From: Mucisphaera calidilacus
Lineage (GTDB): Bacteria; Planctomycetota; Phycisphaerae; Phycisphaerales; Phycisphaeraceae
Length of the DNA: 32,000 bases
Direction: 5' to 3'
Assembly: GCF_007748075.1 (NCBI RefSeq)
Contig: NZ_CP036280.1
Location: 900,001-932,000, forward strand
The first letter of the stretch is position 1; each line of letters opens with the position of its first letter. The notes beneath the pieces were generated by a model that was given only the letters and a program-made list of their open reading frames with translations, was not told the DNA's origin and did no database searches. Shown here piece after piece: positions 241 through 5,717 of the stretch. The translations under genes and the position numbers were made by a program.

Positions 241-624
241 ATGCTGCTGGAACCGGAACAGCCAGAGACCGGAGGGGACGTGGCGCGTAAGGCGGATAAG
301 GTTCGCGGCCTGGAGGTTCGCTTCCCGGACGAGTATGCGTGGTTCGTGCTGGTGTCGTCGATGGACCTGATGTTCACGTGGCTGATTCTGAACCTCGGGG
401 GGAGTGAGGCGAATCCGCTGGCGAACTGGGTCTACCTGCGGCTGGGGTTCAACGGGCTGGTGATTCTCAAGTTTGCGGTGGTGATTCTGGTGGTGCTGAT
501 CTGCGAGCTGCTGGCGCGTCTGCGTGAGCCGACGGCGCGGCTGCTGGCGCGTGCGGCGGTGGTGATCAGCGCGTTCCCGTCGGTGTGGGCGTTGTCGTTG
601 TTGTTTCGGTTTGTGATGGGGTGA
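241..624 (+). CDS. Small polytopic membrane protein, DUF5658-like
   Basis: 127-aa ORF starting 9 nt after the previous stop. It has three or four hydrophobic segments and an SEANPLANW motif like the E-x-NP signature of DUF5658 proteins. GC-rich third positions are consistent with native coding. Confidence 0.55.
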   Translation: MLLEPEQPETGGDVARKADKVRGLEVRFPDEYAWFVLVSSMDLMFTWLILNLGGSEANPLANWVYLRLGFNGLVILKFAVVILVVLICELLARLREPTARLLARAAVVISAFPSVWALSLLFRFVMG

Positions 625-642
625 GGGCGGACCGCGCAAGAG

Positions 643-830
643 GGGAGGCAAGCAGTGTCCACGGACGTCCGTCCGTGGATCGCGAAGGCAGGGGGTGGGG
701 CACCGTTTCTAGTATTGAGATGGATGGTGGGGCGTTGGTTGCGATGTACCCGGCCCCCTTCGCCCGAAGGGGGCTCGTTTGCGGGTGGGGTGTTGGAGAG
801 AGTGATCAGATCGTGAGGGGATGAGGGTGG
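643..830. repeat. 188-bp G-rich structured direct repeat, copy 1
   Basis: Hand alignment to 2101-2288 at a constant offset of 1458 nt gives no indels and about 7 mismatches in 188. It contains two 10+10 palindromes: TCCACGGACG-TC-CGTCCGTGGA (658-679) and GCCCCCTTCG-CC-CGAAGGGGGC (753-774). Confidence 0.9.
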
Positions 831-935
831 GCGCCGGTTGAGGCGGTCGGCCGGGCCTACGCCCCTGCGCCTTGCATTGATAGCGTATTGCCCGATTGCA
901 AAATATAGGCTTGAGACGCCAGCACAGGATCTGAG

Positions 936-1457
936 CTACTGTTCTAGAGGCTGAGTGATATGGGGCGACTGGCCGCCGCGATATACAAAACGCCATATGT
1001 TAATACATATTATGCAGACAGCGAAGACGAGCACAGCGAGCGATATGACCGAGAGAATTGCCATTCTGAGCATCGAAGAATGCGGACCAAAACGCGCATC
1101 TCGTGGATCATCAGGGTTATATCGTAGCCGGACTTCACTACCAATAGGATATGCCGCCAATTGATAGTCTATATCATCTAGGTCGCCCGAGTAGTATATC
1201 CGCCCTTGGTATGCCTTATCTAAAACGCTGTAGGATGCCGTATAGCGTAGACTTCTATATGTTCTCCGGGTAGTAGATGGCACATTCATCGTGTGTACTT
1301 CGACCTGAGCATCGACGATTGTCGCTGTCGTCACAGGCCATGACCTTGAGTGTAAATTGGCTGCTGTTCCATGGAGTAGTACTACAGGAAGGACAATCGC
1401 AACTGCAAGAAATTGTATAGCTACGATATAATGCGCTAATTTCATAATCAAAGACAT
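936..1457 (-). CDS. DUF3592-like membrane protein (TM, beta-rich middle, TM)
   Basis: 173-aa ORF with an N-terminal TM (YIVAIQFLAVAIVLPVVLL), a central segment (...YTASYSVLDKAYQGRIYYSG...GSEVRLRYNPDDP) and a C-terminal TM, which is the typical DUF3592 architecture. Hand-counted GC of the lines covering 961-1500 is 38-52%, well below the flanks. Confidence 0.6.
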   Translation of the reverse strand: MSLIMKLAHYIVAIQFLAVAIVLPVVLLHGTAANLHSRSWPVTTATIVDAQVEVHTMNVPSTTRRTYRSLRYTASYSVLDKAYQGRIYYSGDLDDIDYQLAAYPIGSEVRLRYNPDDPRDARFGPHSSMLRMAILSVISLAVLVFAVCIICINIWRFVYRGGQSPHITQPLEQ

Positions 1458-1849
1458 GATATTTCCCCTAGACTGACATTTCCCGTTTGACCACCCAGGC
1501 TACAGCCGCTGGGGTTCTTTTGAACGAAGTCTATTGCGCGGGCCGCTCTGGCCGAAGCCCCGAGCCGCCAGAATCCGGTTGCCTCGAACCGCTGATCGGG
1601 ATCGGAGTGCATGAGCCGGCAGGCTGCGATCACATCATCGGCTGCGTTGTCCGTCTGGGGAGACGGGAAGGAGGTCTCGAGTTCGGCGAGCGTAATGGGC
1701 AGTCCCTGAGTGCGGACGTGCTGGATTTCTGCGTTGATGCTGATCTGGATCCAGACGCGTACAAGCGTGTATGCGGAGAGGAGGAGAACGAGCGTGAGGA
1801 ATGGAAGTTTCCACCACCTGCCGGTTTTGAGTGAGAAGAGTTTTTTCAC
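1448..1849 (-). CDS. N-terminally membrane-anchored hypothetical protein, possibly truncated or chimeric
   Basis: GTG start at 1849 preceded by GAGGA at 7 nt. It has one TM (WWKLPFLTLVLLLSAYTLV). Its stop overlaps the ATG of the downstream ORF by 10 nt. The base composition shifts from high to low GC inside its 3' third. Confidence 0.45.
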   Translation of the reverse strand: MKKLFSLKTGRWWKLPFLTLVLLLSAYTLVRVWIQISINAEIQHVRTQGLPITLAELETSFPSPQTDNAADDVIAACRLMHSDPDQRFEATGFWRLGASARAARAIDFVQKNPSGCSLGGQTGNVSLGEISCL

Positions 1850-2100
1850 GGTGGATCCTCGCGTTGTTTGTTGAGTCTGAGGCTGTTGGATGTGATTTTA
1901 GAGAAAGAACTGGCGGAATGGGTTCGAGGGATTGAGGATGTGCACTCTGACGTTCCTGCCGGGATCGTTGTTGGATGAGTATTGTTACGAGGGTGGGATG
2001 AGCACTGACCTACTACGTTGCACTTCGCAGGTCAGTGGCACCGAGGAAGTGAGATCACAGATCGGTGGGGAGGCGCGGCAAGGGGGGAGCCGGAAGGGGA

Positions 2101-2288
2101 GGGAGGCAAGCAGTGTCCACGGACGTCCGTCCGTGGCTCGTGAAGGCAGGGGGTGGGGCACCGTTTCTAGTATTGAGATGGGAGGTGGGGCGTTGGTTGC
2201 GATATACCCGGCCCCCTTCGCCCGAAGGGGGCTCGTTTGCGGGTGGGGTGTTGGAGAGGGTGATCAGATCGTGAGGGGATGAGGGCGG
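2101..2288. repeat. 188-bp G-rich structured direct repeat, copy 2
   Basis: Same orientation as copy 1. The palindromes lie at 2116-2137 (one arm base changed) and 2211-2232 (perfect). Confidence 0.9.
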
Positions 2289-2461
2289 TTGTTGTGGGTT
2301 GTACGTATCTGAAGATATGTGGCACCTGGAGCATACGGATTGGGAGGGGTGAGGTTCCGTGGCCAACACGTTGACCACGGCCACCCATGATTTCGATGCT
2401 GAGATGACTGCACACCGGGCTTCGCGCCCGGGGCTCGTTGGAGATATTTTTGGTTGAGTGA

Positions 2462-4096
2462 TCAGGCGGTGAGGGGTTGTGCGTCTTCGGCTTCGACGGG
2501 TGTGGTGATGAGTGACTGGAGGTATTCGGGCTGGCTGCGGTCGACCCACATGCCGAAGGATTCGTCGTCGTCGGCGCGTTCGTCGAGGTAGTGGTCGATG
2601 AGGTTTTTGAGGGCGAGGTGGATCTTGTCGCCTTCGACCTTTTTGGCGATGACCTCGCCGAAGCGTGGGTCGGTTCCGAGTCGTGCGCCGAGGAGGACCT
2701 TGTAGCCATCGACCTTGAGGGGTTTGCCGTCGGGGCCTTTTTTGTCCTTGAGGACGACGGGGATGCCGGTGAGGCCGATGTCGGCGACCTGGTACTGGGA
2801 GCAGGCGTTGGGGCAGCCGGTGAAGTTGATGGCGATGTCCTGGTCGAGGTCGGTGTGTTCTTCGAGGTATCGGAGGACGCGTCCGGCGCGGTGTTTGGTT
2901 TCAACGACGGCGAGGTTGCAGAACTCGGATCCGGTGCAGCTGATGAGCATGTCGCGGAGGCGGTGTGCGTGGGGTGTGAGTCCGGCGGCGTCGAGTTCCC
3001 GGGTGAGGGGCTCGACGTTCTGTGCGGGGATATCGAGCAGGATCATGTTCTGCTTGCCGGTGAGACGGATGCGTTTTTCGCCGGTGCCGTACTTCTCGGC
3101 GAGTTCGGCGGCGTCGGCCATGTTTTTGGCGGTGAGTCGTCCGCGTTCGATGGGGATGCCGACGAATCGGCTGCCGTCTTTCTGTTCGCCGATGCCCATG
3201 TGGTCGTGGTGGGTGGCGGGCGGGCTGACGAGGGAATCGTCATGGATGAGTTTCTTGTCGAGGACGTGCTCGATGGCGTCGCGGGTCCACTGCCAGCCCT
3301 TGTCGGCGACGAGGAACTTGAGTCGTGCGCGTGTTCGTTTGTCGCGGTAGCCGTGGTCGCGGAAGACGATCGCGATGGCTCGTGCGACGTCGAGGACCTG
3401 ATCGGGCTTGATGAAGGCGCGCATCGGCTGTCCGAAGTGGGGTGTTGAGGAGAGCCCGCCGCCTACGAGGAGGCCGTAGCCGGGTTCGCCGTCGTGTGTT
3501 GCGCCGTAGAAGCCGAAGCAGTTGATCTGTGGCTGGTGGCAGTGGAGCTTGCAGCCGCCGATGGAGGGTTTGAACTTTCTGGGGAGGTTGGAGAACTCGC
3601 GGCCGGCCTCGACGAACATGTCGGAGATCTGTCGCGCGTGCTCGGAGGAGTCGATGATCTCGTCTTTGAGGACGCCTGCGAGGGGGCATCCGACGACGTT
3701 GCGTGGTGCGTCGCCACAGGCGAATTGGGAGGAGAGGCCGATGTCCCAGAGTGCCTGGAGGATGCCGCGGAGGTCGCTGATGGTGAGCCAGTGGAACTGG
3801 AGGGTCTGTCGTGTGGTGATGTCGCCGAAGCCGCGTGCGTACTGGTCGCAGAGCTGGGCGATGACCTTGAGCTGGCTGGGGACGAGCTGTCCGGCGGGGA
3901 TGCGGAGTCGGATCATGAAGTGGCCGGTATTGGGCTTCTGGCGGTAGATGCCGAACCACTTAAACCGTTGTGCTACATCATCTTCGGGGATTGCGTCGTA
4001 ATCTCCGGCGTCGGAGTAGTTGAGGAGGTCCTGGAGGACGTCGAAGCCGTCCTTGGCCTTTTTGAGTTCTTCAACCTTGTTGACTTTGGTCGCCAT
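2462..4096 (-). CDS. Ferredoxin-dependent sulfite/nitrite reductase (siroheme-[4Fe-4S] hemoprotein, Sir/NirA family)
   Basis: The true start is taken as ATG at 4096 (MATKVNKVEELKKAKDG...), giving 544 aa. It carries the NIR/SIR repeat architecture and the cluster/siroheme cysteine motifs CTGSEFC ... CPNAC. The upstream 517 aa of track ORF 2462..5650 is an Arg/His-rich antisense read-through of ugd and is rejected. Confidence 0.85.
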   Translation of the reverse strand: MATKVNKVEELKKAKDGFDVLQDLLNYSDAGDYDAIPEDDVAQRFKWFGIYRQKPNTGHFMIRLRIPAGQLVPSQLKVIAQLCDQYARGFGDITTRQTLQFHWLTISDLRGILQALWDIGLSSQFACGDAPRNVVGCPLAGVLKDEIIDSSEHARQISDMFVEAGREFSNLPRKFKPSIGGCKLHCHQPQINCFGFYGATHDGEPGYGLLVGGGLSSTPHFGQPMRAFIKPDQVLDVARAIAIVFRDHGYRDKRTRARLKFLVADKGWQWTRDAIEHVLDKKLIHDDSLVSPPATHHDHMGIGEQKDGSRFVGIPIERGRLTAKNMADAAELAEKYGTGEKRIRLTGKQNMILLDIPAQNVEPLTRELDAAGLTPHAHRLRDMLISCTGSEFCNLAVVETKHRAGRVLRYLEEHTDLDQDIAINFTGCPNACSQYQVADIGLTGIPVVLKDKKGPDGKPLKVDGYKVLLGARLGTDPRFGEVIAKKVEGDKIHLALKNLIDHYLDERADDDESFGMWVDRSQPEYLQSLITTPVEAEDAQPLTA

Positions 4097-5638: not shown

Positions 5639-5664
5639 GCGTGTGTCCATCCTGAGACAAGAAA

Positions 5665-5690
5665 AGCCCCGGAGCGGTCCGGGGCTTGTT
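5665..5690. terminator. Bidirectional intrinsic terminator between convergent ugd and the PfkB gene
   Basis: AGCCCCGGA (5665-5673), loop GCGG, TCCGGGGCT (5678-5686): a 9-bp GC-rich stem. The minus-strand transcript is followed by UUUUCUUGU (good). The plus-strand transcript is followed by UGUUGGGG (weak). Confidence 0.6.
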
Positions 5691-5717
5691 GGGGTGCGGG
5701 TTGGTTGACGGCGCGTT

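Follow-up and report, generated by a model that had tools for sequence, protein, structure and literature searches.

A block of about 1.67 kb (positions 618–2288) near the start of a 32,000-nt stretch of the Mucisphaera calidilacus chromosome carries two long direct repeats around a patchwork interior and is specific to this lineage. The stretch, hereafter the window, corresponds to C1:900001–932000 of a genome (G000) that consists of the single closed contig C1 (3,486,541 bp); two further Mucisphaera species, G001 and G002, served as same-genus comparison genomes. The block is tentatively read, with a probability of about 0.48, as the product of Campbell-type integration at the 3′ end of a gene of the DUF5658 (domain of unknown function) family, the 188-bp repeats being the duplicated junctions. 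Circular DNA would have entered by a single reciprocal crossover with the chromosome at the DUF5658 3′ end, and each repeat would then represent an arm of the element, holding two hairpin modules that resemble repetitive extragenic palindromes (REPs), joined to a degenerate copy of the DUF5658 end.

The repeat pair and the empty site in sister species

The repeat search placed the two copies of the 188-nt direct repeat at 643–830 (R1) and 2101–2288 (R2), both on the + strand, with 1458 bp from start to start and 1270 bp in between. A first-pass annotation, made from the letters of the window, had described 188-bp repeats in the same orientation and 1458 bp apart, free of indels and with about 7 mismatches (about 96% identity). 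The repeat search reproduced the spacing, and a base-by-base count gave exactly 7 mismatches (positions 679, 683, 724, 725, 746, 801, and 828), 96.3% identity, and no indels. At each of the four edges the likeness breaks off abruptly. Searched against the whole genome, the repeat retrieves its second copy at E = 1.3e-84, and the match is therefore not due to chance; the pair is also very unlikely to stem from misassembly, given the 7 differences between the copies and a genome closed as a single contig. The repeat is non-coding, as the longest open reading frame (ORF) across it holds five of the R1/R2 differences, four of them non-synonymous.

The first-pass annotation had proposed that copy number be established by blastn and had envisaged, as an outcome contrary to its view, a high-copy dispersed repeat. 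Sensitive blastn detected only the two copies in the 3.49-Mb genome and no further ones in 60 relatives. A search of 400 genomes of the phylum returned noise only, and no copy was found in exact-word scans of metagenome contigs (two scans) and genome contigs or in plasmid and phage collections. With two copies only, a dispersed mobile element, that is, a miniature inverted-repeat transposable element or an insertion sequence (IS), is not indicated. Consistent with the first-pass description, no terminal inverted repeats were found around the block and neither a transposase nor an integrase is present within it. Cluster-collection lookups and exact-word contig scans yielded no conspecific genome or metagenome contig.

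The block is set between two housekeeping genes. On its left lies the probable target, the DUF5658-family gene (241–624, + strand; Pfam PF18902, 1.1e-9), and on its right an unaffected gene for a ferredoxin-type sulfite/nitrite reductase (2462–4096, − strand; assigned by ORF and homology), the closest public relative of which is an orthologue, 84% identical, from a metagenome-assembled genome of Mucisphaera sp. The first-pass annotation had placed R1 19 nt past the DUF5658 stop and R2 about 175 nt from the reductase gene; the placement stands and the distances are slightly amended, R1 starting 18 nt past the DUF5658 stop codon (622–624) and R2 ending 173 nt before the reductase stop codon (2462–2464).

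The DUF5658–reductase spacer measures 25 bp in G002 and ∼100 bp in G001, in accord with the first-pass view of the segment as an insertion absent from relatives. Nothing like the repeat was found in either of these spacers, and the whole ∼1.67-kb block 618–2288, both repeats included, is therefore lineage-specific. The accompanying proposal of an ancestral spacer that already contained a single copy of the element is not borne out, since the empty sister sites hold no copy and the repeats themselves belong to the lineage-specific DNA. Outside Mucisphaera, the DUF5658 and reductase genes are not even adjacent.

On the left, the junction falls within the final codons of the DUF5658 gene, from base 618. 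The G001 and G002 orthologues of this gene are 75% identical, and the three genes align up to TTTGTGAT, which ends at 617; right after it G000 departs from both sisters. Past 617 the sisters read (Q/E)-H-(S/TP)-stop and G000 reads G GGG TGA, so that the encoded protein ends in ...FVMG* in G000, versus ...FVIQHS* and ...FLIEHTP* in the sisters. The first bases beyond the break (618–630, + strand) form the left copy of a 13–14-nt motif, GGGGTGAGGGCGG, a candidate crossover core; both repeats also end in this motif, which reads GGGGATGAGGGTGG in R1 and GGGGATGAGGGCGG in R2.

On the other side of the block, 2289–2461 (+ strand) is residual ancestral spacer. Its segment CACGTTGACCACGGCCACCCATGA aligns to the G001 spacer, the sister-orthologous stretch being 2366–2390, and the repeat does not. 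This spacer also includes one further hairpin plus CTCGTT module (2415–2442), with a weak covariance-model score of 20 bits. Derivation of the repeat from the ancestral spacer was considered and rejected, as only 2366–2390 matches the spacer of G001.

Hairpin modules and a gene-end-like tail

The first-pass annotation had treated the 188-bp element as anonymous; the element is real, but it has a recognizable make-up, namely a module dimer plus a gene-end-like tail. Each copy contains two hairpin plus CTCGTT modules of a REP-like family, followed by what is probably a diverged copy of the DUF5658 3′ end. The hairpin modules occupy 659–679 and 753–774 in R1 and 2117–2136 and 2211–2232 in R2. Both hairpins of a repeat have perfect 10-bp stems and are intact in R1 and R2 alike, and the second stands with CTCGTTTG. 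A structure search of the element, also suggested in the first pass, returned no Rfam covariance-model match at E ≤ 1 on either strand of 400–2700, and in folding of the whole repeat neither strand beats shuffled sequence (z = −0.4 and −1.1).

Members of the module family share an 8-bp stem (CCCnnnnC/GnnnnGGG), a 4-nt loop, and a following CTCGT(T/A/G)GGGG, in which CTCGT is invariant. In an alignment of nine module sequences, 98.6% of cells are paired and five of the eight pairs change on both sides, counts that are biased, with covariation partly built in and overstated, because the aligned sequences were picked for perfect hairpins. The covariance model detects 18–25 modules in G000, 26 in G001, and 23 in G002; 22 other genera of the family yielded next to none. 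The modules thus constitute a REP-like extragenic palindrome family of all three Mucisphaera genomes. They were also considered as plain terminators; a crude orientation survey was inconsistent, and they are therefore called terminator-like or REP-like only. Further modules stand at 5658–5704 of the window and at C1:58856, 771390, 771440, 2511351, 3124894, and 3130783, and a module subfamily (GTGTGGCACCCCAAGC...) occurs at C1:263524, 273280, 610719, 2934123–2934259, and 2942941–2943137.

A family of this kind brings to mind hairpin-directed mobility. R1 and R2 modules could be the end hairpins of a nonautonomous IS200/IS605 element, or of one of the REP/RAYT (REP-associated tyrosine transposase) type, that carries cargo and is moved by a single-strand HUH (Y1) transposase. 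The compensatory stem changes of the family and its 18–26 copies per Mucisphaera genome speak for such an origin, as do two IS200-like Y1 genes (PF01797) of G000 that each lie directly behind a module; so does the design of IS200/IS605 ends, which have subterminal hairpins on one strand and duplicate no target (PMC6006769). However, neither Y1 gene occurs in G001 or G002, where modules are equally numerous, the Pfam scores of the two genes are weak (21–33 bits), and the covariation is in part a product of how the aligned sequences were chosen. What IS200-type ends have in common is hairpins, not 188 bp at 96% identity, and no second copy of the supposed element exists. Transposition by a Y1 enzyme is thus considered a very improbable origin of the repeat pair.

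The two Y1 genes of G000 lie at C1:770861–771340 (− strand) and C1:2510885–2511340 (+ strand) and are 50% identical to one another. Both are preceded by a hairpin plus CTCGTT module and an AT-rich stretch, and the second lies between 32-nt direct repeats with a spacing of 591 bp. The single Y1 matches in G001 and in G002 are not near a module. Elsewhere in G000 (C1:282159–283894), a RAYT-type Y1 gene (282706–283527) stands between arrays of a 55-bp tandem repeat, an arrangement like that of a REP/RAYT unit built on another repeat family.

Module clusters have also grown in other convergent spacers of the M. calidilacus lineage (285 versus 43 bp and 469 versus 215 bp, relative to G002). Such expansion would be compatible with repeats that are not products of insertion at all, in which case the flanking module clusters would have been made alike by gene conversion over 188 bp, or a mobile 188-bp unit would have landed twice nearby. 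The same may be said of two 35-nt modules of 97% identity that flank a minus-strand GNAT gene in G001, 572 bp apart. Set against this, members of the family share only ∼20–30 nt, too little to start a conversion tract through 188 nt of sequence that is otherwise unique; no third copy of the repeat was found anywhere; and the right boundary of R1 is the start of foreign DNA (see below), which is expected if duplication and insertion were linked. The chance that the two copies arose independently of an insertion is accordingly put as very slim. The G001 module pair (G001:C2:1418182–1418788) is in direct orientation, with the single GNAT gene between.

Beyond the modules, repeat positions 130–188 align to window positions 568–630 with a score of 19.5 (∼68% identity over 62 nt, with gaps). 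None of 500 dinucleotide shuffles, and 0.1% of windows drawn at random from the genome, attained this score (p about 0.001). The last 9 nt of R2, TGAGGGCGG, are identical to the stop codon plus 6 nt of the DUF5658 gene, and three gene-end-like, or attachment-site (att)-like, ends with the motif GGGG(A)TGAGGGCGG follow one another in direct order at 618–630, 817–830, and 2275–2288. A likeness of the 3′ end of the repeat to the 3′ end of the reductase gene was weak (10 of 500 shuffles) and was set aside for the better match to the DUF5658 end.

A patchwork interior with one recent gene

Composition of the interior is best read against the GC skew of the chromosome, which is organized in domains of about ±0.3, each tens of kb long, with ∼95 sign changes over 3.49 Mb. 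In 5-kb windows the skew has a standard deviation of 0.21 and a genome-wide mean of ∼0, and it is independent of gene orientation. The window is placed in a domain of positive skew (+0.27) that extends from ∼C1:898700 to ∼960000. Within the block, 831–1640 is a compositionally foreign core with a GC skew of ∼0 throughout (0.00 to 0.03, where the 52-kb domain around it has 0.27 ± 0.07–0.11; a value under the 1st percentile for windows of that size), whereas R1, R2, and 1641–2100 show resident-like skews of 0.31–0.41. As the first-pass annotation had noted for this interval, GC content is the lowest of the window: the 600-nt bin 1201–1800 has both the lowest GC (0.535) and the lowest GC skew of the 32 kb. 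Over 872–1485, GC content is 46.4%, against 63–64% in the flanks and under the domain minimum.

The first-pass characterization of the whole interval as a low-GC insertion is therefore apt for 831–1640 only. The remainder, 1641–2100, looks native and comprises a 5′ gene stump plus a species-specific hairpin repeat. A foreign segment beside a native-looking one argues for at least two events, and the islet was probably built in at least two steps, the low-GC piece being, to judge from its composition, the youngest part of the block.

Two minus-strand ORFs, one of them DUF3592-like, had been reported between the repeats; both were recovered, and they overlap by 10 nt. The first (936–1457, − strand) is an intact gene for a DUF3592 membrane protein of 173 aa (Pfam PF12158, 6.8e-11), and it is the only clearly recent cargo. 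GC content at its third codon positions is 0.43, versus 0.82 for the reductase gene; GGGGA 7–8 nt ahead of the ATG provides a good ribosome-binding site, and the protein has transmembrane segments at both ends. The protein has 388 distant relatives, the best of them 31% identical among 1.8 billion cluster representatives, and is a singleton in a collection of 5.8 billion clusters.

The second ORF (1448–1849, − strand; 133 aa, GAGGA 7 nt ahead of GTG) belongs to no family. Its relatives are membrane-anchored proteins of 160–470 aa that match only residues 4–93. As composition changes near 1640, inside this ORF, and as the relatives match ∼90 residues, the ORF is best understood as a 5′ stump (∼90 aa) read through into foreign DNA. 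Close homologues were found for neither interior ORF, both being singletons, and neither matched PADLOC, PHROGs, or NCBIfam. An origin of the 133-aa ORF as a displaced piece of the gene that neighbors atpD in the G002 layout was rejected (33–34% identity, with the G000 site holding other DNA). The position downstream of atpD in G002 holds a homologue of the 133-aa ORF, and in G000 the sequence just downstream of atpD (C1:3121960–3122990) is of lower GC and contains two small ORFs.

The species-specific hairpin element, H (1961–2053, + strand; stem 2003–2037, followed by GGCACCGAG), is situated upstream of the stump. Five relatives of H at 72–77% identity occur in G000, four as tandem 112-bp units at C1:1536069–1536496 and one at C1:58772–58865; neither G001 nor G002 yielded the element. 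These sequences follow the plan GAGCAC-stem-loop-GTGGCACCGAG. In one convergent spacer they form an array of 112 bp × 4.2 (C1:1536022–1536496), in another a single unit, and both H-bearing spacers are much shorter in G002.

In terms of the proposed history, arrival of the young foreign segment 831–1640 with its DUF3592 gene would have cut off a resident-looking gene and left its first ∼90 codons. The interior may have been remodelled in this way after the integration, or the block may have arrived already as a patchwork.

Proposed integration at gene ends and its relation to known systems

The genome was compared with itself to find other nearby direct repeats. Besides the block, G000 contains three integrase-less islets of 1.5–2 kb, each flanked by 43–54-nt copies of the 3′ end of a gene. 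At C1:3453858–3455891, a 46-nt perfect repeat equals the last 38 nt plus the stop codon of a GNAT gene; the unit of 1988 bp is of low GC and carries a DarT gene (4e-53) and a macro-domain, DarG-like gene (1e-22), and the corresponding GNAT site is empty, with short spacers, in both sister species. At C1:239293–241222, a 43-nt perfect repeat equals the 3′ half of a tRNA and delimits a unit of 1887 bp with two overlapping minus-strand ORFs. At C1:3409751–3411329, a 54-nt repeat of 98% identity corresponds to the 3′ end of a protein gene, and the unit of 1525 bp contains a PEP-CTERM-like gene. Classical islands with integrases and tRNA-derived repeats of 41–123 nt are also present. Small integrase-less units are thus common in this chromosome, and together with the islands they indicate that integration at gene 3′ ends, leaving direct repeats, is a habit of it.

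Most of the other nearby direct repeats were rejected as parallels because they represent tandem paralogous genes, and a repeat array at 1.09–1.11 Mb was rejected as remnants of IS ends. The latter region (C1:1090400–1110400) is a 20-kb mosaic with low-GC patches and seven copies of a 130–235-nt repeat; the repeat terminates with codons for the C-terminus of a transposase (...GGLLNHDYRKAA*), and the copies are probably IS-end remnants.

The single-crossover (Campbell) geometry suggested in the first pass remains the best reading of the block and gains support from the three other islets. The three gene-end-like sites in series suggest either two related integrations in tandem (accretion) or a single integration that hit a scar already present. 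The favored catalyst would be a tyrosine recombinase supplied in trans, and RecA acting on the 188-bp homology could also have served. Recombination between R1 and R2 is predicted still to be able to delete the 1458-bp unit.

Several observations weigh against integration at the DUF5658 end. The empty sister sites are without the one att copy that an unoccupied target should retain, and their gene ends also differ from that of G000 from 618 on. The repeat proper begins 18 nt past the stop codon and so lies outside the real gene end. Its likeness to that end is modest, at only ∼68% identity with gaps, and was noticed post hoc in G/T-rich sequence; it is therefore supporting rather than proving. 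The analogy with the other islets is imperfect, as those have short perfect repeats that include a real gene end. Tandem related integrations predict alike left arms, and ACCGCGCAAGAG (631–642) and GCGCCGGTTGAG (831–842) are not convincingly alike. The modules are resident sequence of the genus, and the repeat could be local spacer DNA and not the arm of an element. Finally, no tRNA gene lies within 28 kb and no recombinase gene within 500 kb, the nearest PF00589 match (the genome encodes six recombinases of this family) being beyond that distance, although a recombinase gene would not be expected nearby if the block is a remnant or a unit mobilized in trans.

Duplication during replication or repair, with no circular intermediate, would yield the same geometry by any of three routes: capture of a linear fragment at a staggered break, with fill-in duplicating 188 bp of target; insertion of linear DNA that exceeded one unit in length and came from a cut concatemer of the 1458-bp unit; or tandem duplication of that unit, followed by loss of the second interior. 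Each accounts for a unit length equal to the insert plus one repeat and needs no recombinase gene nearby; moreover, a hairpin-rich region could stall replication or be cut, and intergenic modules do become tandem arrays in this genome, as the 112-bp × 4.2 array illustrates. Such an origin is nonetheless judged unlikely. There is no microhomology across any of the four junctions and no trace of a second interior after R2, and the prior for an insertion that falls precisely between the members of an existing tandem pair is about 1 in 376. The apparent copy of the DUF5658 3′ end in the repeat would also be left unexplained, as would the gene-3′-end flanks of the three other islets.

Integration at the gene end can also be framed more broadly. 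M. calidilacus may host a class of mobile cassettes of 1.5–2.0 kb with one or two genes and no recombinase, inserting at gene 3′ ends and flanked by long direct repeats, but existence of such a class is regarded as rather improbable. The enzyme in trans may then be a resident tyrosine recombinase or a hairpin-directed Y1 transposase, and the 188-bp pair may mark a cassette with an unusually long arm of REP-like hairpins. Another reading would make the block a working, integron-like cassette-capture site, with the repeat as an attC-like site and the recombinase encoded elsewhere. The cassette-sized content, the direct orientation of the repeats, and the occurrence of several islets of 1.5–2.0 kb in one genome would agree with this, and the conserved hairpins with their invariant CTCGTT recall the G|TT crossover site of attC. 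Yet the repeat does not fold into one hairpin, the sequence contains no RYYYAAC/GTTRRRY pair, the other islets use unrelated repeats, there is one “cassette” only, and no integron-type integrase lies nearby; cassette capture of this type is considered extremely unlikely.

Whatever its route, the event is ordinary in kind, and the genome holds several other small examples. The block is a small strain-level acquisition that placed a DUF3592 membrane protein of unknown role between two housekeeping genes, and it offers a clean, datable example of single-gene uptake at gene ends in a planctomycete chromosome. Genetics is poorly developed in planctomycetes, and only a small number of their mobile elements are on record. 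Within one islet, the strong local GC skew acts as an internal clock that parts young from resident DNA. Two by-products may outweigh the principal finding: the REP-like hairpin family, shared by the three Mucisphaera genomes and nearly confined to that genus among those searched, and the set of four integrase-less islets of 1.5–2 kb, one with a DarT/DarG pair. If the islets prove mobile, their repeats would be handles for gene delivery or deletion in Mucisphaera.

Among known systems, the modules most resemble the REPs, bacterial interspersed mosaic elements (BIMEs), and RAYT systems (PMC2817692, PMC3116915), with which they share short GC-rich extragenic palindromes, an invariant motif beside the stem, compensatory stem changes, clusters in convergent spacers, and restriction to one genus. 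They differ from REP/BIME arrays in their number (∼20 copies per genome), in their arrangement, which is mostly direct and not alternating, and in a link to Y1 genes in only one of three genomes. Integron cassettes and clusters of attC sites lacking integron-integrases (CALINs) have in common with the block cassette-sized units parted by structured direct repeats; unlike them, the block is a single unit without attC architecture and without an integron integrase nearby. Closer in geometry is insertion of a plasmid by single crossover, in which the unit likewise equals the insert plus one segment of homology, the duplication is direct, and recombination between the repeats reverses the event. 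Such an insertion differs in that it needs a circle already carrying the repeat, and neither a repeat-bearing circle nor a donor locus was found in the phylum genomes, contigs, plasmids, and phages searched.

The closest counterparts are islets flanked by attL and attR. Derivatives of this type without an integrase are familiar from the literature on integrative and conjugative elements and integrative and mobilizable elements, as cis-mobilizable elements, decayed genomic islets, and tandem accretions of integrative elements. As in these, direct repeats surround low-GC cargo at the 3′ end of a gene, part of the repeat resembles the gene end, three att-like sites stand in series, no recombination gene lies inside, and comparable islets flanked by tRNA and gene ends occur in the same genome. 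In contrast to them, the 188-nt repeats are unusually long, lie just outside the coding sequence, have ∼68% identity to the real gene end, and consist mostly of resident REP-like modules. The feature is most likely a scar or mini-islet, flanked by repeats, from an integration at a gene end, and so of a known kind, distinguished by the length of its repeats and by the REP-like modules within them.

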